Assembly (NCBI GenBank): GCA_951406725.2
Contig: OX597829.1
Span: 47,678,001 to 47,742,000 of the forward strand
From: Octopus vulgaris
Taxonomy: Eukaryota
Length of the DNA: 64,000 nt
Direction: 5' to 3'
A program made the translations under genes and the position numbers. The notes below the pieces were generated by a model. The model searched no databases. It was not told the DNA's origin and was given only the letters and a program-made list of their open reading frames with translations. Positions 1,973 through 60,925 of the stretch are shown one piece after another. Numbering within the stretch: position 1 is the first letter of the stretch; each line of letters opens with the position of its first letter.

Positions 1973-2856
1973 CGACTGCTTTAATGCATTTACATAATCC
2001 AGACTTGATTCTCATAAAATGCTTTTGCCAAAACAAAGTTATACTAGCACTAACAAACTTTCTTAAACTTCTGATGTATTTAAGCTTTAAATTTTAAAGG
2101 TTAAGATCCCATTAAAAGTCATGTTAAATTATCATGGGAGTCAATTAGAACGGTGTGTAAGACACGCTCTCGTATTAGACAAACCACCATCTTCTGGCAG
2201 AAAAAAAGGATATGTATTATCATACACGAATATACTCGGTATCCCAACCGTAATACAGTCGCATTAGCTGTATGTCAATTTTTTGTCACATTTACGAATA
2301 AGAAAGTATGAAAGATACACCGGCTCACATAGTATTTTATTTTAGTTTACTCACAAAATATTTGACGTTTATGAATTCGTTTAATAAGATTCGTAAAATA
2401 AAATCGTGTGTTGAAAAGAGATATGGTTATATTTAGGGATTGTCATTTTTGTTTTTTTATCTTGCCAAATAAACACACGCACTGAATATTCGTTTTTCCC
2501 TCGTTTTTTATCTTTCGTGTCCATTGTCTGGAAATCTTTCTTCCCACATTTGTGACTTCTTCAGCGATCCTTCCATCTTACGTGTCTCCTCCTGGTTTGT
2601 TATATATATATACCAAGTAGATTTCGGTATGTAAAAGCCCCATTCGAGGAAAATTTAAGTAATACTAAGTAATTAAGGGTTTAGCAACGAATTGCCTCAC
2701 CAACACACCGAATTTAGAAATAGCAGTCAAAGAGATATAGCTATTCCTTCTACTAAAAGGGGGATCTCAGTAAAAACACAGCACTTAAAAGGCAAACACA
2801 GACAGGTAAGAAAGAAAGAATGAAATGACGGCAATCCATCATGCAATTTTAAGTTA

Positions 2857-2948
2857 CCTACGGACGTACGTTTCGAGATCAAGTTTTAGGATATCATAAG
2901 AATTAGAAAATTCTACTTTACCCAGACTTCTTCTCTCATCGGCGCAGG
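2857..2948 (-). ncRNA. Type I hammerhead ribozyme motif (CCGAUGA core variant), copy 1
   Basis: Minus strand: CCUGCG-CCGAUGA-GAGA...UCUC-GAAAC-GUAC-GUC-CGUAGG. Confidence 0.7.
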
Positions 2949-3444
2949 ATACTACAATTGTGAATAATTGTATATTAAATTTTGAGATACTAGAATGCGT
3001 CATCTCAACTCAGTGTCAGAGCGAGCCAAAGCATGACCAGTACCACGAAATTCAAAGTTTGAATGAAAGTTTGTGTCACCAGCCCCCTTCCACCCGCGTG
3101 TAGCCAAGACAAAATGCTGTGGTCATTTACTGGGATAAAATATGGTTATCAGTAATAATAAAAGGGTGAAATTAATTAATTAGGGATAATTATCAATTAC
3201 ACCAAGTAGATTTCGGTATGTAAAAGCCCCATTCGAGGAAAATTTAAGTAATACTAAGTAATTAAGGGTTTAGCAACGAATTGCCTCACCAACACACCGA
3301 ATTTAGAAATAGCAGTCAAAGAGATATAGCTATTCCTTCTACTAAAAGGGGATCTCAGTAAAAACACAGCACTTAAAAGGCAAACACAGACAGGTAAGAA
3401 AGAAAGAATGAAATGACGGCAATCCATCATGCAATTTTAAGTTA

Positions 3445-3536
3445 CCTACGGACGTACGTTTCGAGATCAAGTTTTAGGATATCATAAGAATTAGAAAATT
3501 CTACTTTACCCAGACTTCTTCTCTCATCGGCGCAGG
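3445..3536 (-). ncRNA. Type I hammerhead ribozyme motif (CCGAUGA core variant), copy 2
   Basis: Identical to copy 1. Confidence 0.7.
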
Positions 3537-3987
3537 ATACTACAATTGTGAATAATTGTATATTAAATTTTGAGATACTAGAATGCGTCATCTCAACTCA
3601 GTGTCAGAGCGAGCCAAAGCATGACCAGTACCACGAAATTCAAAGTTTGAATGAAAGTTTGTGTCACCAGCCCCCTTTCACCCGCGTGTAGCCAAGACAA
3701 AATGCTGTGGTCATTTACTGGGATAAAATATGGTTATCAGTAATAATAAAAGGGTAATTAATTAATTTCACCCTTTTATTATTACTGATAACCATATTTT
3801 ATCCCAGTAAATGACCACAGCATTTTGTCTTGGCTACACGCGGGTGGAAGGGGCTGGTGACACAAACTTTCATTCAAACTTTGAATTTCGTGGTACTGGT
3901 CATGCTTTGGCTCGCTCTGACACTGAGTTGAGATGACGCATTCTAGTATCTCAAAATTTAATATACAATTATTCACAATTGTAGTAT

Positions 3988-4079
3988 CCTGCGCCGATGA
4001 GAGAAGAAGTCTGGGTAAAGTAGAATTTTCTAATTCTTATGATATCCTAAAACTTGATCTCGAAACGTACGTCCGTAGG
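3988..4079 (+). ncRNA. Type I hammerhead ribozyme motif (CCGAUGA core variant), copy 3
   Basis: Stem I CCUGCG/CGUAGG (6 bp with one GU), core 3994-4000, long stem II, GAAAC 4062-4066, palindromic GUAC loop, GUC site 4071-4073. Confidence 0.7.
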
Positions 4080-4277
4080 TAACTTAAAATTGCATGATGG
4101 ATTGCCGTCATTTCATTCTTTCTTTCTTACCTGTCTGTGTTTGCCTTTTAAGTGCTGTGTTTTTACTGAGATCCCCCTTTTAGTAGAAGGAATAGCTATA
4201 TCTCTTTGACTGCTATTTCTAAATTCGGTGTGTTGGTGAGGCAATTCGTTGCTAAACCCTTAATTACTTAGTATTAT

Positions 4278-4351
<74 letters not shown>

Positions 4352-4528: not shown

Positions 4529-4691
4529 TCTTTATCAATTTGTGTTGCAAGATTCCTGACGTGGAATCCTGTGTTGAAACATATTGTTATATTTCGGGAT
4601 GATCTTTTGGGGTTTTTTCTTGCCAAATAAACACACGCAGTATAAATTCGTTCTTCACTTGTTTATCATTGTTCTTATTTTATGTCCATTA

Positions 4692-4732
4692 TCTGGACAT
4701 CTATCGTCACACACCTGTGACCTCTTCAGAGA
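4692..4732 (-). ncRNA. Degenerate hammerhead-like motif
   Basis: CUGAAGA-G-GUCAC-AGGUGU-GUGAC-GAUA-GAU-GUC (GAAA mutated); a more decayed paralog lies at ~2525-2570. Confidence 0.4.
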
Positions 4733-5061
4733 CTCTTCTATTCCACGTGTCTAGTCCTGTTCTATTTAGCCCATTCGAAACGAATAAAGAACAGATATAA
4801 AGTGCATGTGTTTATTTAGTAAGAAAACAAGAGATGACCATCTCGAAATATAGCAATATCACAAAATACTTATTTCGGACTATTAAACAGATTTCTGAAA
4901 AAAGCGAACCTGATACATTTCTTAAAAAATGTGATACCATTCTTTATGAAATTGATATGGTACTCATTCCTTTACAATTGACAGAATCCTGTAAATCCAC
5001 TTTCATTTTTACAGTCAATAATCAAGGAACTACTGCATTTGTAGAAACTCAAATTTATTCG

Positions 5062-5390
5062 TGGCAGTCCGTCGGTTACGACGTCGAGGGTTCCAGTCAT
5101 CCGATCAACGGAACAGTCTGCTCGGGAAATTAACTGAGCACTCCACAGACACGTGTAACCTTAACATAGTTCTCGGGGAGATTCAGCGTAACACACATTG
5201 TGACAAGGCTGGCCCTTTGAAATACAGGTACAACAGAAGCAGGAAGAGAGTTGTGGTAAAGGAGTACAGCAGGGTTGTGCTTTAGGTTTTTTTCGGCCAA
5301 TAAACACTCGCAACGCCCGGTCTGGGAATCGAAACCACGATCCTACGACCGCGAGTCCGTTGCCCTAACCACTGAACTATCGCACCTCCA
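5062..5390 (-). mobile_element. SINE family B, composite or deleted copy
   Basis: Tail TCCGTCGGTTACGACG and head GGTCTGGGAATCGAAACC...CTAACCACTG match copies at 58.2-58.8 kb and 63.6 kb. Confidence 0.7.
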
Positions 5391-6908: not shown

Positions 6909-7123
6909 CGCATCCGTACCTTGTACACATTCACATATGCTTAAACCCTCACCGTATACACCCACTTCTAGTACATAAATAACGACACATTAAAGATAAC
7001 AGGAATTTATATAAAACTCAACCGCAATACACATACAGACACGTCACATACGTATAAACATATATATATATATATACACACACACACGCACGCACACACA
7101 CACACACACACACACGCACGCAC

Positions 7124-7369: not shown

Positions 7370-7552
7370 AGTGCGTGTGTATATATATATATATGTTTAT
7401 ACGTATGTGGATTGTGACGTGTCTATATGTGTATTGTGGTTGAGTTTTATATAAATTCCTGTTATCTGTAATGTGTCGTTATTTATGTACTAGAAGTGGG
7501 TGTATACGGTGAGGGTTTAAGCATATGTGAATGTGTACAAGGTACGGATGCG
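6909..7552. repeat. ~155-bp inverted repeat (6909-7060 / 7392-7552) flanking microsatellites and a SINE C fragment (7157-7312)
   Basis: CGCATCCGTACCTTGTACAC... versus ...GTGTACAAGGTACGGATGCG with few mismatches. Confidence 0.85.
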
Positions 7553-8043: not shown

Positions 8044-8410
8044 TCTAGTTTCAGTTCAGAGCTGCGGCCATGCTGATGCACCGCCGTTTTGTGCTACACT
8101 GTTATTACTAAGAGCCTCCTCTAATATGTGGCACTTGGTGAAGAATGGAGTTTGATATAGCTACTCTCATTTGCACCTCTTGCCGTGAGGTAGGTTTATC
8201 TGGGACTCTCGACAGGAAGAGGTCCAGCTTTGATTTAAAAACCCCTACATCTACTTTGTGCAAATTCCTCAGACTCTTTGGGAGAATATTAAAAAGCTGT
8301 AGGCCCTTGAAACCCAGGCTGTTGCAGTAACTGGTCCTGAAGTGTGATGGCATTGCTGGGATCTTTTGCACTATGCAATGTCGTCCCGTTCTGGCATTGT
8401 TGTAGCTTTC
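8044..8410 (-). mobile_element. 5'-truncated LINE 3' end (L2/CR1-group ORF2 C-terminus plus 3' UTR)
   Basis: SLGFKGLQLFNILPKSLRNL...FKSKLDLFLSRVPDKP is typical of the post-RT C-terminus of CR1/L2-group LINEs; tail shared with SINE A. Confidence 0.75.
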
Positions 8411-9696
8411 AATGTATAAGCTTTTAACAGTGAAATGATATTAAATTGATAAAGACTAAAGTTGTAATTTTACTTTATACATTGCAAGTTAATTACTTTC
8501 CTGTGCCTAATGAGATCTCATTTTATTTTAATAACCAAATAACCATCACTGGTTTTATCGTGTATGATATAATTACTACTAAAAGTAAAATTTAATGTGC
8601 TAATTATATTATCTCATCAGCCCTCTTACTGCTCCCTAACACCCTTTTCGATATGTCCGGCGGCTGCTTGTGGGCAGTACAGCCCACATTGAGAACTTTT
8701 GCTATAGCTTAACACTTCTCTTTTAACGCAAATTGGCACCGACTGACATCTTGAGTTGAAAACCTATAACTAAGTGGGTAGATTGATTCTAGGAAAGGCG
8801 GGGAGAGAAGAAAGAACGATAAAAGGAGAATGAGAAAGAAGGATCTATTGTAGTAACTGACATTTTTAATTGATTAAAAGCAAAGTTGAGACCTCTGTGA
8901 GATTTGCACTCAGAACGGTAAGATCCGGAACAATATATAGCAGAGCATTCTGGCAATGGCCCTGACAACTCTGCCAATTATGGCCCGGCTGTAAACAGTG
9001 TTGTCTATGCGACTCGCAAGCCTACAGATGCATCGCATTAATGGAGAGAACCACGATATAGCCGACTAACCAGCTAGAAATAGCAACCAAGTCCCTCTCA
9101 AAGTACACTTTATTGTTGTTGCAAGAAAACGAAAGACTCGAGCTGCTGGCTTTTTAATTTCTTATTTTTATTTATTTATTTATTTATTTATTTATTTTTG
9201 GTTTTGTATTGTATCGAAGCCGAATTCAATCGGTAGAATGTTGTCTACGAGAAAACAAACGAATGATTTGGGTGTGAATGTGTCGCACAAGAATAAATAC
9301 TAAACAAAGTTTTCAGCTATACAATGCAACAGGAAAAAGAAAAAAATAATACACGCACGCACAAAAGCAGACGTAATTCCCTCTTTGTATATTTTACTCA
9401 AAGAAGTGTGCAATTTCAAACATTCAAGTTTTCATAAAGATGTTTTCACTTACATAAAAAAAATACAAGTTTCAATAATAACATGCGTCTTATGAATAAA
9501 ACGTATTCAATAGGCAGACGTTCTGCAACTGGATATAAATACTCTATACGCTTTGAACACTTCCTTCATTTCTTTTGACTAACCTTATTAATTATTACCA
9601 ATATATACATACCTATACAAATATATGTACATAGGTGTGAATCTGTGTGTGTATACATTCGCGCACACATATATATATATATAAAATACTTATTTT

Positions 9697-19746: not shown

Positions 19747-20070
19747 TAAGGGTTGAATAAAATAATGGAGACACCTTAAAATTTCAAAGAAATTTATTTT
19801 AATATGGGCCTTTGGCAGTAATTACAGCTTGAATTCTATGACGTATAAACTTGTACAAAGTTTGAATTGTTTCCAGATGAATTTTTGTCCATTCTTCAGC
19901 TAAAACAGTCTGCAGTTCTTGTAGTGATGATGGTGGAGGATATTGACTCCTTACTTGTTTCTCTGAAATGTACCGTAATTGTTCAGTAATATTGAGATCT
20001 GGAGACAGTGGTGGCCAGATAAGATGTTCAACTTCACTAGAATGTTCCTCGTGCCATTCAGTAACAACTT
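19747..20070 (-). mobile_element. Tc1 transposon 3' end (repeated at ~22604-22928 and ~25400-25724)
   Basis: KVVTEWHEEHSSEVEHLIWPPLSPDLNITEQL... with terminal repeat AGGGTTGAATAAAATAATGGAGACACC. Confidence 0.85.
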
Positions 20071-23000
20071 TATGTATGTATGTATGTATGTATGTATGTA
20101 TGTATGTATTATGCATGTATGTATGTATGTATGTATGTATGTATGTATGTATGTATTATGCATGTATGTATGTATGTATGTATGTATGTATGTATGTATG
20201 TATGTATGTATGTATGTATGTATGTATGTATGTATGTATGTATGTATGTCATTATTCAGTTTTATTTCAAGATTTCTTATCAATAAAGAAAGAACCGGTT
20301 TCTAACCTAGATCCAAGGTTCCTTCACAGGAATTTCAACATCAACAACAGGATATTTTTGTATGTATGTATGTATGTATGTATGTATGTATGCACGTATG
20401 CACGTATGCACGTATGTATGTATGTATGTATGTATGTATGTATGTATGTATGTATGTATGTATGTATGTATGTATGTATGTATGTATGTATGTGTGTGTG
20501 TATGTGTGTATGCATGTATGTATGTATGTATGTATGTATGTATGTATGTATGTATGTATGTATGTATGTATGTATGCATGCATGTATGTATGTATGTATG
20601 TATGTATGTATGCACGTATGTATGTATGTATGTATGTATGCATGCATGTATGTATGTATGTATATATGTATGTATATCTTTATTCAGTTTTATTTGAAGA
20701 TTTATTGCCAACAGAGAAAGAACCGGATTCTAACCTAAATCCAAGGCTCCTTCATTGGAATTTCAACATCAACAACAGCGTATGTATGTATGTATGTATG
20801 TATGTATGTATGTATGTATGTATGTATGTATGTATGTATGTATGTATGTATGTATGTATGTATGTATGTATGTATTATGCATGTATGTATGTATTATGCA
20901 CGTATGTATCTTGTGTTAGATTCTCTAAATGTCCCTTCCTTATTAAATTATATATTCATATATATTCTGAGGAAAGTCATATATTAACAACCTCCAGGGC
21001 AAAAATTAAAACTACCGGTGAATGAATTCAGGCGGGTCATTGGCCACCCAGTAAAGTGTATATCTACATGCATATATATTGTGTATTTCTGTTCGGGTGA
21101 GACGATAGGGCGCAGTTGTTTAAACGTTGACCATTTGGCAGGGTCGCCTGGATGTCTAATTCTTTTGAAGACCGTGCGTTTTGGCACCAGAGGTAAACAC
21201 ACATGCAGACGCACAAAAATATACACATGCAGAGAAAAGGAAGAGGAATGGAGAGATAGAGTGACATCATACATAACTATTTTGTTATGTTTGTCGCTTT
21301 TGTAAACAGAGACAGGCAGACAGACAGAGGAGGGAGAGAACGAGAGGAACATTAAAATGTCAAATAAGTCAGCGTTGAATCAGCAATGCTAACTATGCGT
21401 TGCCAAACCGTCTCATACCTGTGTCCGTGTACATAGAAACTAAATGGCAGTAGGATACGCTTCGCCATAACCCGTTGTGTTTGTTGGTCCAGCTTACTTT
21501 TCTTTTCTTTCTCCATCTTTAATAGTTTCAAACATTAAAAAAAGTGTCACACGTGTTTCATAGACATTTCTCACAACAAACTTCTGGAGTCATTCATTAA
21601 TGAACCAAGATAATGCGGTACACCAATTGTAAACTTGGTTACACTTATTACGAGCTGATCTGTGATAACACAGATTGGCTTGGGCCACAAACCTTTGCTC
21701 TAGCGACCAATCACACAATGCTCGGGCCGACTTGAGGTCTCGGAGCAAAATCTATTTTTCCCATATGTTCTGTAATAATAATTTTAACCAATGAATCGCC
21801 AGTATTTAAGTTGAAATCATTTGCGTTGTGTTGAAATCTGGCTATCAAAAGGAAAAGATCCTTAAAACTTTGATAGCTTATTTCTGTTTAAATAAATGAT
21901 TCGTACATATTTTCACGAGTATTTTGATTTTATTTTTCCATTTCAGTATTGGCTTTTAAAAACTTTTTTTATGCTTTTTAATCATATTCGGTGAGATATA
22001 AGGTGAATCGTCAGAAACAAAAAAAAAAGAAAAAGAGAAAAAAAGGAAATTAGGTAACAACACATTGGGGTAGAGTAACAGGTTGTACACCCCAGTCCAG
22101 TTTGTGTATTCACCCGGGCCTCGTAGACACAAATGCAAAGTTTTTAAAATTTTTTAATGATCTGGAGTCGAAAAAGACGTAACTCAAAACGACGTAGGTT
22201 GAGGAATGCCTGAAGCGAGGAACCTCATAAAACAAGCTGTCAATGTCTCCCTCAATTTTATTTCTTGAAGACACTGGGCGATGTAATTCGGAGGAATTGT
22301 CACGTTTGGAAAGCTTTTTCTTATAAATCTTCTCGATCAGGGCTAATTTGATGACTTAACAACAATACAAACAAAAAACGGCAATTACTTGAGGAGATAA
22401 CAACAATACATGCGCGAGCCTCTAGAAGTTGTCCGGCCTACTAGATATAGCAGCCAAATTTCCTTCAAACCACAACTATTCAAGCTATTGCATCTTTGTA
22501 TCAGATGAAAACACAGCATTTTGGAACAAACACACACACACACACATTCACACACGCATACACACACATACACACACACATATACATATATATCTTATGT
22601 CTATAAGGGTTGAATAAAATAATGGAGACACCTTAAAATTTCAAAGAAATTTATTTTAATATGGGCCTTTGGCAGTAATTACAGCTTGAATTCTATGACG
22701 TATAAACTTGTACAAAGTTTGAATTGTTTCCAGATGAATTTTTGTCCATTCTTCAGCTAAAACAGTCTGCAGTTCTTGTAGTGATGATGGTGGAGGATAT
22801 TGACTCCTTACTTGTTTCTCTGAAATGTACCGTAATTGTTCAGTAATATTGAGATCTGGAGACAGTGGTGGCCAGATAAGATGTTCAACTTCACTAGAAT
22901 GTTCCTCGTGCCATTCAGTAACAACTTTATGTATGTATGTATGTATGTATGTATGTATGTATTATGCATGTATGTATGTATGTATGTATGTATGTATGTA

Positions 23001-26000
23001 TGTATTATGCATGTATGTATGTATGTATGTATGTATGTATGTATGTATGTATGTATGTATGTATATATGTATGTATGTATGTCATTATTCAGTTTTATTT
23101 CAAGATTTCTTATCAATAAAGAAAGAACCGGTTTCTAACCTAGATCCAAGGTTCCTTCACAGGAATTTCAACATCAACAACAGGATATTTTTGTATGTAT
23201 GTATGTATGTATGTATGTATGTATGTATGTATGTATGTATGTATGTATGCACGTATGCACGTATGCACGTATGTATGTATGTATGTATGTATGTATGTAT
23301 GTATGTATGTATGTATGTATGTATGTATGTATGTATGTGTGTGTGTATGTGTGTATGCATGTATGTATGTATGTATGTATGTATGTATGTATGTATGTAT
23401 GTATGCATGCATGTATGTATGTATGTATGTATGTATGCACGTATGTATGTATGTATGTATGTATGTATGTATGCATGCATGTATGTATGTATGTATATAT
23501 GTATGTATATCTTTATTCAGTTTTATTTGAAGATTTATTGCCAACAGAGAAAGAACCGGATTCTAACCTAAATCCAAGGCTCCTTCATTGGAATTTCAAC
23601 ATCAACAACAGCGTATGTATGCATGTATGTATGTATGTATGTATGTATGTATGTATGTATGTATGTATTATGCATGTATGTATGTATGTATTATGCATGT
23701 ATGTATCTTGTGTTAGATTCTCTAAATGTCCCTTCCTTATTAAATTATATATTCATATATATTCTGAGGAAAGTCATATATTAACAACCTCCAGGGCAAA
23801 AATTAAAACTACCGGTGAATGAATTCAGGCGGGTCATTGGCCACCCAGTAAAGTGTATATCTACATGCATATATATTGTGTATTTCTGTTCGGGTGAGAC
23901 GATAGGGCGCAGTTGTTTAAACGTTGACCATTTGGCAGTGTCGCCTGGATGTCTAATTCTTTTGAAGACCGTGCGTTTTGGCACCAGAGGTAAACACACA
24001 TGCAGACGCACAAAAATATACACATGCAGAGAAAAGGAAGAGGAATGGAGAGATAGAGTGACATCATACATAACTATTTTGTTATGTTTGTCGCTTTTGT
24101 AAACAGAGACAGGCAGACAGACAGAGGAGGGAGAGAACGAGAGGAACATTAAAATGTCAAATAAGTCAGCGTTGAATCAGCAATGCTAACTATGCGTTGC
24201 CAAACCGTCTCATACCTGTGTCCGTGTACATAGAAACTAAATGGCAGTAGGATACGCTTCGCCATAACCCGTTGTGTTTGTTGGTCCAGCTTACTTTTCT
24301 TTTCTTTCTCCATCTTTAATAGTTTCAAACATTAAAAAAAGTGTCACACGTGTTTCATAGACATTTCTCACAACACACTTCTGGAGTCATTCATTAATGA
24401 ACCAAGATAATGCGGTACACCAATTGTAAACTTGGTTACACTTATTACGAGCTGATCTGTGATAACACAGATTGGCTTGGGCCACAAACCTTTGCTCTAG
24501 CGACCAATCACACAATGCTCGGGCCGACTTGAGGTCTCGGAGCAAAATCTATTTTTCCCATATGTTCTGTAATAATAATTTTAACCAATGAATCGCCAGT
24601 ATTTAAGTTGAAATCATTTGCGTTGTGTTGAAATCTGGCTATCAAAAGGAAAAGATCCTTAAAACTTTGATAGCTTATTTCTGTTTAAATAAATGATTCG
24701 TACATATTTTCACGAGTATTTTGATTTTATTTTTCCATTTCAGTATTGGCTTTTAAAAACTTTTTTTATGCTTTTTAATCATATTCGGTGAGATATAAGG
24801 TGAATCGTCAGAAACAAAAAAAAAAGAAAAGAGAAAAAAAGGAAATTAGGTAACAACACATTGGGGTAGAGTAACAGGTTGTACACCCCAGTCCAGTTTG
24901 TGTATTCACCCGGGCCTCGTAGACACAAATGCAAAGTATTTTAAATTTTTTAATGATCTGGAGTCGAAAAAGACGTAACTCAAAACGACGTAGGTTGAGG
25001 AATGCCTGAAGCGAGGAACCTCATAAAACAAGCTGTCAATGTCTCCCTCAATTTTATTTCTTGAAGACACTGGGCGATGTAATTCGGAGGAATTGTCACG
25101 TTTGGAAAGCTTTTTCTTATAAATCTTCTCGATCAGGGCTAATTTGATGACTTAACAACAATACAAACAAAAAACGGCAATTACTTGAGGAGATAACAAC
25201 AATACATGCGCGAGCCTCTAGAAGTTGTCCGGCCTACTAGATATAGCAGCCAAATTTCCTTCAAACCACAACTATTCAAGCTATTGCATCTTTGTATCAG
25301 ATGAAAACACAGCATTTTGGAACAAACACACACACACACACATTCACACACGCATACACACACATACACACACACATATACATATATATCTTATGTCTAT
25401 AAGGGTTGAATAAAATAATGGAGACACCTTAAAATTTCAAAGAAATTTATTTTAATATGGGCCTTTGGCAGTAATTACAGCTTGAATTCTATGACGTATA
25501 AACTTGTACAAAGTTTGAATTGTTTCCAGATGAATTTTTGTCCATTCTTCAGCTAAAACAGTCTGCAGTTCTTGTAGTGATGATGGTGGAGGATATTGAC
25601 TCCTTACTTGTTTCTCTGAAATGTACCGTAATTGTTCAGTAATATTGAGATCTGGAGACAGTGGTGGCCAGATAAGATGTTCAACTTCACTAGAATGTTC
25701 CTCGTGCCATTCAGTAACAAATTTATGTATGTATGTATGTATGTATGTATGTATTATGCATGTATGTATGTATGTATGTATGTATGTATGTATGTATTAT
25801 GCATGTATGTATGTATGTATGTATGTATGTATGTATGTATGTATGTATGTATGTATGTATGTATATATGTATGTATGTATGTCATTATTCAGTTTTATTT
25901 CAAGATTTCTTATCAATAAAGAAAGAACCGGTTTCTAACCTAGATCCAAGGTTCCTTCACAGGAATTTCAACATCAACAACAGGATATTTTTGTATGTAT

Positions 26001-57770: not shown

Positions 57771-57989
57771 AATGCTTTGTGTACTCACAGCTCCCTTTTC
57801 TACTAGTTTTGTGTGGCCGAACAACGGAGATCACCTATTTGTTACCACGACCTACTGGAAAGAGAAGTCAAATTTCCTCCAAATTGCCAATCGATGTTGA
57901 TTTGCCTCCAAATTACCAATCGATGTAATAAACTCCACTAATTACATGATTACTAAGGTGGTGCTTCTGCATGTTGACCGCGATCGAAG

Positions 57990-59040
57990 ACCAGAAATAG
58001 AAATATTAATAGAAAACAGAAGGCCGGCTGTTTTGATCGTGCACAAGATAGAAAGAAAATGTGACATTATTGACGTAGCAAACCCCAGGAACAAGAATAT
58101 GAAAAGCAAAATGGAAGATAATGTGATCAACTATTGCAAACTAAGAAGAGAACTGAAAAGATATCGAACTTAAATGAAACAAGTTTAACTCCGATCATTG
58201 TTGACAGATTTGGAATGGTAACGATAAAACGATTAACGTCGCCCTTTTCAAGCCTAGCCAGGCTCATGGGCCCAGTTTACCAGCTTCTGTGGCGTATGTG
58301 TTCCCCACAGCTGGACGGGACGCCAGTTCATTGCAGCGTTACCCAAGAAACAGGAAGAGAGAGTGAGAGAAAGTTGGGGCGAAAGAGTACAACAGGGGTC
58401 GCCGCCACCCCCTGCCGGAGCCTCGTGGAGCTTTTAGGTGTTTTCGCTCAATAAACACACACAACGACCGGTCTGGGAATCGAAACCGCGATCCTCCGAC
58501 CTCGAGTCCGCTGCTCTAACAACTGGGCTATTGCGCCTCCACACTGCGCCCTTTTAAAGCCTAGCCAGACTCACGGATCCGGTTTCCCGGTTTCAATGGC
58601 GTATGTGTTTCCCAGCTGGACGGGACGCCAGTCCACCGCAGCGTTACTCATTTTTGCCAGCTGAGTGGACTGGAGCAACGTGAAATGAAGTGTTTTGCTC
58701 AAGAACACAACGCGTCGCCCGGTCCAGGAATCGAAACCACAATCTTACGATCATGGTGCTGACGCCCTAACCACTAAGCCACGCGCCTCTACATGGAATG
58801 GTAACAACCAGTCTTAAATCCTGATAAGATATGTTACACGGAGCTTCTGCAGAAAGTTTCATTATCTGGAAAAGTAAGGATCATAAGAAGAGTTTTTGAG
58901 ACCAAAAGCTGTTGGTTGTAGTTTTCTCTCAGGGAAAAATTATTCCAGTTCAACATGTTCCCATCGGGATAACTTAGTAATAAACAACAACAACGACCAC
59001 GATGACAGCAACAATAAAAATAATAATAATAACTACTAAA
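57990..59040 (+). pseudogene. R4/Dong-type LINE 3' end (restriction-like endonuclease) interrupted by SINEs
   Basis: IENRRPAVLIVHKIERKCDIIDVANP...YCKLRRELKR...; resumes after 58794 with ELLQKVSLSGKVRIIRRVFET; degenerate (TAA/CAA)n tail. Confidence 0.7.
58223..58793 (-). mobile_element. Two tandem SINE B-type elements within one 12-bp TSD
   Basis: TGGAATGGTAAC at 58211-58222 and 58794-58805. Confidence 0.8.
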
Positions 59041-60635: not shown

Positions 60636-60682
<47 letters not shown>

Positions 60683-60685
<3 letters not shown>

Positions 60686-60875
60686 TTACCTTTCTTACCT
60701 GTCTGTGTTTGCCTTCAAGTACTGAGATTAGTCGACTGCTATTTCTAAATTCGCAATTCGTTGCTAAACCCTTAATTACTTAGTATTACAAATTTTCCTC
60801 GAATGGGGCTTTTACATGCAAATCCTTGTTAATTGATAATTATCCCTAATTAATTAATTTCACCCTTTATTATTA

Positions 60876-60880
<5 letters not shown>
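60683..60880. repeat. Deleted, circularly permuted copy of the 589-bp unit
   Basis: Matches ~4120-4277, then continues through the reverse complement of 3250-3147 across the unit junction; (TA)n flanks. Confidence 0.75.

Positions 60881-60925
<45 letters not shown>

Follow-up and report, generated by a model that had tools for sequence, protein, structure and literature searches.

A hammerhead-bearing 589-bp unit in tandem and inverted copies in an Octopus vulgaris TA microsatellite: a probable insertion by Penelope-like machinery

Results

Organization of the locus

The 64-kb stretch of Octopus vulgaris DNA analyzed here (the window) contained three near-identical copies of a 589-bp unit, two in tandem and one inverted (Table 1), which was the arrangement given in the original prediction. 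Only copy 1 was full length; copy 2 and the inverted copy were both incomplete. The claim of three copies therefore stood, but copy 2 was only partial and the inverted copy ended at 4276, one base before the claimed 4277. As evident from the pairwise comparison, the copies differed at one to three places: copy 1 and copy 2 by one mismatch and one gap, copy 1 and the inverted copy by one gap, and copy 2 and the inverted copy by one mismatch and two gaps, with every difference falling in homopolymer runs. These few differences supported the view that near identity reflects one recent event. The three copies had also been placed between (TA)n tracts, and we found TA sequence on both sides, but the left tract measured just 12 bp.

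Copy 2 and the inverted copy together formed an inverted repeat of about 500 bp. The turn at 3755 was a single T common to both copies, which sat as the one shared base within an AATT palindrome, and the inverted arm carried 15 unit bases that were missing from copy 2 at the turn. At its far end, the inverted arm stopped at the equivalent of 2660 and gave way to a different flank, with no mirroring of copy 1 or of the left flank. At the turn, no more than 15 nt separated the two arm ends, and both fell 18-33 nt short of completing a lap of the unit. The chance of two ends falling within 15 nt was 0.05, and that of both falling in the last 45 nt was 0.006, the latter for a window chosen post hoc. 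The layout first proposed for this locus had overlooked this coincidence, together with the 48-nt tail at the left end and the non-canonical core of the ribozyme.

An older repeat family adjoined the insertion on both sides (2368-2594 and 4531-4759 on the minus strand, 4778-4859 on the plus strand). Its two same-strand copies were 73% alike and the inverted piece was 75% alike. These copies carried a decayed hammerhead-like motif (CUGAAGA) and ended at TA tracts, and the right copy additionally had a stem II hairpin. Judged by their sequence, they are likely to represent an earlier nest of Penelope-like element (PLE) type at the same microsatellite.

Table 1. Positions of the repeat copies, their ends and the hammerhead motifs in the 64-kb window
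Feature	Position	Strand	Basis
Left (TA)n target remnant, short	2600..2611		sequence; 12 bp
Copy 1, complete 589-bp unit, ribozyme sense on minus	2612..3200	-	sequence comparison
48-bp extension at the left end only, absent from the inverted-copy end; putative PLE tail	2612..2659	-	sequence; PMC8557442, PMC11167929
Hammerhead motif 1, type I; 6-bp stem I, C4 (2941), 61-nt stem II, 2-bp stem III; predicted cut after 2863	2857..2948	-	sequence, folding
Predicted hairpin over the head-to-tail seam; contains 3201 (= 2612), where the insertion starts, and the two ends at the fold-back (3167, 3182)	3165..3203	-	z -2.95; 1/200 shuffles as good
Copy 2, partial, 555 bp, ends at equivalent of 3167	3201..3755	-	sequence comparison
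Hammerhead motif 2; predicted cut after 3451, 588 nt from motif 1	3445..3536	-	folding
Inverted copy, 522 bp = copy-1 3182 down to 2660	3755..4276	+	sequence comparison
Hammerhead motif 3	3988..4079	+	sequence
Right (TA)n tract, then (TG)n/(TA)n up to about 4525	4277..4333		sequence
Second family copy, deletion-riddled, spans the head-to-tail seam, (TA)n both sides, no ribozyme	60682..60881	+	sequence comparison

The hammerhead motif and its predicted folding

The hammerhead string quoted in the original prediction was found in 3/3 copies, and the two predicted minus-strand cleavage sites had the spacing that it had given. Each copy contained the core segments CCGAUGA and GAAA, a GUAC loop on stem III and a GUC cut site. 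This differed from the canonical core (CUGANGA / GAAA / NUH) by a C at position 4 in 3/3 copies. A relaxed hammerhead scan of the 64 kb returned three matches, only these, and 30 block shuffles gave a mean of 0.1 (maximum 1). In the same 64 kb, Rfam gave no match at gathering level and no hammerhead among 15 weak matches (E up to 10), and a search of viral sequences with the core pattern and long stem II gave 0 matches. The 22 metagenome matches to the core pattern were regarded as chance (stem I of at least 4 bp in 0/22; no blastn match to the unit).

Stems I and II were predicted with pair probabilities of 0.94-1.0, and stem III scarcely formed in a single copy (predicted P 0.001-0.002). The stem III strand was self-complementary, with a duplex energy of -9.8 kcal/mol. 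The active single-ribozyme fold made up <0.1% of the predicted circle ensemble, and cleavage would therefore need the double-hammerhead fold. In one window of the dimer, the double-hammerhead fold was favored by 9.4 kcal/mol over a pair of open single ribozymes, and its predicted probability at the five end points tried was 0.86, 0.96, 0.19, 0.45 and 0.05. The notion of C4 as a monomer-locking device was weakly supported (active-fold penalty of 4.4 vs 3.7 kcal/mol) and was set aside; C4 also reduced the double-hammerhead probability in 5/5 windows. The same core change, U4C, is reported as a natural viroid hammerhead variant that is considerably less active in vitro (PMC3088659), yet sufficiently active in vivo (cited in PMC3088659). 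In the viroid it is a variant of a plant pathogen, whereas for the octopus unit, a genomic family present in two organisms, no alternative was listed at this position. Xenopus retrozyme dimers are reported to have shown no cleavage in vitro in 8/9 cases (10.64898/2026.07.22.740005).

The monomer circle of the ribozyme strand was predicted at -154.1, compared with -120.8 +/- 6.4 for shuffles (0/40 as good). The z-score of this strand was -5.5 on rerun (-5.2 to -5.5 overall) and that of the opposite strand was -0.6 (10/40 as good). The monomer RNA was predicted to be 65% paired, on the ribozyme strand only.

We also considered the RNA that the whole locus would yield. In minus-strand read-through RNA, copy 2 was predicted to pair with the inverted arm, leaving its ribozyme stems at a predicted P of 0, and in plus-strand RNA ribozyme 3 was likewise predicted to be buried in the long hairpin. 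Cleavage at the two tandem sites had been proposed to release a monomer. The 588-nt spacing agreed with this proposal, but the buried copy 2 ribozyme, the U4C core and the scarcity of the active single fold weakened it, and in these models only a transcript starting inside copy 2 could release such a monomer. More likely, on the same models, the read-through RNA would form a double-stranded hairpin of about 500 bp and act as a source of small RNAs rather than of monomers. For inverted Penelope copies, siRNAs matching the inverted part have been reported (PMC3681739).

The repeat family and its variation

Of 24 sequencing runs listed, 20, representing two organisms, contained part of the stretch. 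Four runs were compared over 3160-3800, three of DNA and one (X3) of RNA by guess. The three DNA runs, which came from two organisms, gave 1881, 757 and 1022 family contigs and X3 gave 11, counts that, like summed depth, do not equal copy number; their identity bands to the unit were spread from 99+ to under 90. Summed depth rose at 3248-3269 in 4/4 runs, at most a hint of a fixed start site since this measure cannot rank the parts of the unit, and no pile-up of molecule ends was present among those listed for the four runs over 3160-3800.

The head-to-tail seam was crossed by contigs of runs X1, X3 and X4 and by the older second copy in the window, which identified the 589-bp loop as a property of the family. 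The start of this second copy lay close to the 3148 equivalent and coincided with neither of the proposed start sites (2612 and 2660), which, like the lack of an end pile-up among those listed, speaks against fixed start sites. (TA)n was present on both sides at 2/2 family loci in the window. The second copy had few substitutions and five deletions, each 8-14 bp long; its decay may have been biased towards deletion, or it may belong to a shorter subfamily.

Among the 35 listed substitutions, 34 were mapped on the predicted circle; the one at 3678, which was specific to copy 2 of the window, was dropped and indels were left out. Sixteen were unpaired, 11 kept a pair and 7 broke one, so that 27/34 were compatible with the predicted fold, and the 7 pair-breaking changes compared with 13.0 +/- 2.3 expected (P 0.0085). 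Double compensatory changes were absent from the 34, and the fold of a 15-change variant set was no better than that obtained with random changes (-146.3 vs -144.4 +/- 6.6). No variant among those listed (at least 5%) fell in the 19 core positions, where about one was expected, so this result is not significant alone; at position 4 (3529) in particular, no alternative at 5% or more was among those listed in 4/4 runs. The stem variants seen in the family changed G.U to A-U in stem I and G-C to G.U in stem II. A family without the stems, named in the original prediction as evidence that would speak against it, was not what we found: the family variation keeps the predicted stems.

Four pieces from three X3 contigs, which are strandless and RNA by guess, tiled the whole unit with copy-1 alleles. 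The X3 pieces matched copy 1 at 3548, 3584 and 3587, where the DNA runs mostly carried other letters. Taken more widely, the window letters at 3217, 3425, 3548, 3584 and 3587 (copy-2 coordinates) were the less common ones in the three DNA runs and matched the main X3 contigs. These matches hint at a transcribed young, possibly active subfamily, X3 being RNA only by guess.

Contigs at the fold-back junction

No bridge over 3755 was found among the 32 of 3706 contig pieces shown, and no joint with a strand change was listed; contigs drop rare forms. One organism-B contig ran from the forward unit through 8 foreign bases into the inverted arm at 3756 (a single contig with a depth of 7.5), and this contig is a second head-to-head end at nearly the same position. 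Two organism-B joints to 3755 were too weak to use, as they had 21-nt sides with unknown letters between them. The palindromic loose ends in X1 resembled library linker and were not taken as biological.

Coding potential and search for a partner

The longest stop-free frame in a copy was 84 aa, and Pfam returned no family for 5/5 stop-free unit frames tested. No RT or GIY-YIG open frame was found in the unit. A 46-aa frame that resembled a GIY-YIG end by eye had no match among longer proteins; phmmer gave 7 matches to it, and the 6 examined were all unrelated repeat proteins. A neighboring frame at 4801-5130 had no match in Pfam or Atlas. With regard to an autonomous partner, the unit frames gave no PLE protein match, two octopus Naiad 3' ends were unlike the unit in a comparison by eye, and five short unit motifs were absent from the supplement of PMC8557442. 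For O. vulgaris, 31 recently active PLE families have been listed, with ribozymes unmentioned in the available text (PMC13282606).

Comparison with known elements

On the features that could be tested, namely tandem type I hammerheads, many genomic copies, the lack of a coding frame and a predicted self-paired RNA, the unit belongs with the animal non-LTR retrozymes (PMC7229834, PMC7761336), cleavage and circularity being predicted only. Those elements are likewise non-coding head-to-tail units with one type I hammerhead per unit, a GC content under 50%, a highly self-paired predicted RNA and a proposed mobilization by PLEs (PMC7229834; 10.64898/2026.07.22.740005). The weak palindromic stem III resembles that of amphibian dimer-type ribozymes, and the ribozyme anatomy as a whole is close to the PLE and amphibian dimer types (PMC4209133). 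There were also some differences. The unit, at 589 nt, is larger than the invertebrate circles of about 170-400 nt (PMC7229834), and falls in the size range of 51-972 bp given by the 2026 survey. It has C4 in the core and a stem II of 61 nt, and its core is predicted to be self-paired in the monomer; for most of the metazoan circles published, the prediction is an unpaired core. Additionally, neither a tail nor inverted-copy anatomy is described for retrozyme insertions in the available texts of PMC7229834 and the 2026 preprint.

The EN+ PLEs (Penelope/Poseidon, Neptune, Naiad and Hydra; PMC8557442, PMC11167929, PMC4209133) share with the locus a partial tandem, an inverted 5'-truncated copy, a one-ended tail, putative at this locus, a (TA)n target without readable duplication and a type I hammerhead upstream of the RT start region, a region that is likewise putative here. 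In contrast to them, the unit has no RT or GIY-YIG frame; it is not an autonomous PLE, and its hammerhead has a variant core. Chlamys PLEs such as MRC1 (PMC8557442) also include non-autonomous derivatives, pseudo-LTRs and multicopy head-to-tail insertions, but these are green algal elements, mostly without canonical hammerheads, and they have 3' ends in common with a known partner, while none was found for the unit.

Discussion

We consider that the locus probably holds a non-autonomous hammerhead retroelement, a non-LTR retrozyme, which was placed in a TA microsatellite in one recent insertion by PLE machinery. Published PLE insertions show a partial tandem, an adjacent inverted 5'-truncated copy, a one-ended tail of 30-40 bp and a preference for (TA)n; the tail is a feature absent from non-LTR priming (PMC8557442). 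The layout seen here matches this pattern, with the putative tail, at 48 bp, longer than reported. The original prediction of a retrozyme-like unit in a Penelope-type insertion was thus upheld in that the layout corresponds to Fig 2 of PMC8557442, the family is head to tail, there is no recognizable protein and the stems are kept; the core is non-canonical.

Three other origins were weighed. The arrangement might have been produced at the DNA level, from an ancient repeat or satellite unit whose ribozyme was a dead relic, by tandem duplication and by inversion through a replication template switch at an AT-rich palindrome. The turn within AATT with one shared base fits this account, as does a non-canonical core for which cleavage is predicted only, and local tandem amplification after PLE landing has been proposed (10.64898/2026.07.22.740005). 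We nevertheless think it unlikely, because it leaves unexplained the clean TA flanks on both ends, the one-ended 48-bp overhang, the second dispersed copy in (TA)n, and the strand-specific folding with its fold-preserving variation.

If the copies were instead 5'-truncated pseudo-LTRs of an autonomous PLE, the 589-bp period would be peculiar to this insertion rather than the mark of a separate non-coding family. This is distinctly improbable, since contigs from three runs, covering two organisms, cross the same seam, as does the older, independent copy, and no coding signal was found in the unit. In its favor, PLE insertions are mostly 5'-truncated, ribozyme pairs on opposite strands are reported for them 100-700 bp apart (PMC4209133), and, with 20 of 192 loose ends shown, continuation into a coding body could have escaped notice. 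The least probable origin is an assembly artefact in which a fold-back read, or a mis-join of two family members, made the inverted arm. A fold-back would be expected to mirror copy 1 and the left flank, whereas the inverted arm ends at the 2660 equivalent in a different flank; moreover, the adjoining older family also has an inverted layout (4778-4859), the pattern equals the published PLE one and both G-run lengths are present in the family. These points outweigh, in our judgment, the lack of a bridged junction among the contigs listed, the restriction of the copy differences to homopolymers, as long-read errors would be, and the proneness of high-copy families to mis-joins.

For the preferred reading, insertion of a retrozyme by PLE machinery, the following course may be proposed. 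Tandem genomic copies would be transcribed on the ribozyme strand, and the RNA would fold compactly with the single ribozyme mostly locked. Two copies could then pair their palindromic stem III strands, and the resulting double hammerhead would excise a monomer of about 589 nt, which a host ligase could close. A PLE GIY-YIG/RT dimer would nick both (TA)n strands, and two cDNAs would start 48 nt apart, at 2612 and 2660. In vitro, purified PLE protein nicks and extends both strands of AT-rich DNA, and it starts at two internal RNA sites, the spacing of which equals the tail, using mostly uncut RNA (PMC11167929). The cDNA from 2612 would run for 1144 nt (1.94 units) and that from the 2660 equivalent for 522 nt (0.89 unit); both would pass intact ribozyme sites and halt in the same hairpin, and their ends would be joined head to head via the one shared base.

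Since the cDNAs would pass intact ribozyme sites and one would run 1.94 units, the template would be a multimer or a circle. We lean slightly towards an uncut linear multimer, and a circle under rolling reverse transcription is a strong candidate that falls just short of our preference. The coincidence of the arm ends would be explained by a circle with a bound complex, by an RNA whose 5' end is fixed near 3182 or by a stop at the hairpin. In a fuller and decidedly more tentative version, a single circular retrozyme RNA would have served two PLE RTs, one primed on each target strand, with 48 nt between the priming points. Rolling round it, they would have completed 1.94 and 0.89 laps, across ribozyme sites that were intact, before both halted at a complex-loading hairpin; a self-locking C4 core and the 61-nt stem II would have been kept by the family, hiding it from Rfam and standard descriptors.

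Retrozymes and their proposed link to PLEs are already published. The case for mobilization of animal retrozymes by PLEs has so far been built on a shared ribozyme type, on co-occurrence and on similar pseudo-LTRs. In particular, the 2026 preprint (Li, Clavereau and Pollet; 10.64898/2026.07.22.740005) used the last two of these, in vertebrates, to argue for a PLE origin and called the mobilization mechanism open, and its main text does not deal with tails, molluscs or inverted insertions. In a literature search that had most subscription papers outside its range, we found no account of the 589-bp family or of a tail and inversion anatomy for any retrozyme. A closed non-coding ribozyme unit with a putative PLE-specific tail, an inverted copy and a TA target provides separate, insertion-level support, within the scope of one locus of a known class, with ribozyme activity that is predicted only and no partner found. 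The ends of the unit predict exact RT start and stop sites, which can be checked by a genome survey or with a PLE system in vitro. With its variant core and long stem II, the unit suggests that families are overlooked in counts based on descriptors; if these two features do hide it from Rfam and from standard descriptors, the retrozyme counts published so far would leave such families out. If the circular-template reading is true, the unit offers a defined RNA for circular-template priming with purified PLE protein.

Other repeats were observed elsewhere in the window. Two stop-free frames, 57901-58170 on the plus strand and 8111-8440 on the minus strand, matched no Pfam family at cut-off, and the latter had no homolog; both resemble what we take to be decayed pieces of non-LTR retrotransposons. 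Between about 17300 and 26950, several repeated blocks lay among (TATG)n tracts, with near-identical fragments such as 19802-20155, 22659-22961 and 25455-25796 on the minus strand; the fragments on this strand are presumably derived from a Tc1-like transposase. Finally, 6909-7048 and 7413-7552 formed a 140-bp inverted repeat, the arms of which were 98% complementary and 364 bp apart, around microsatellites.
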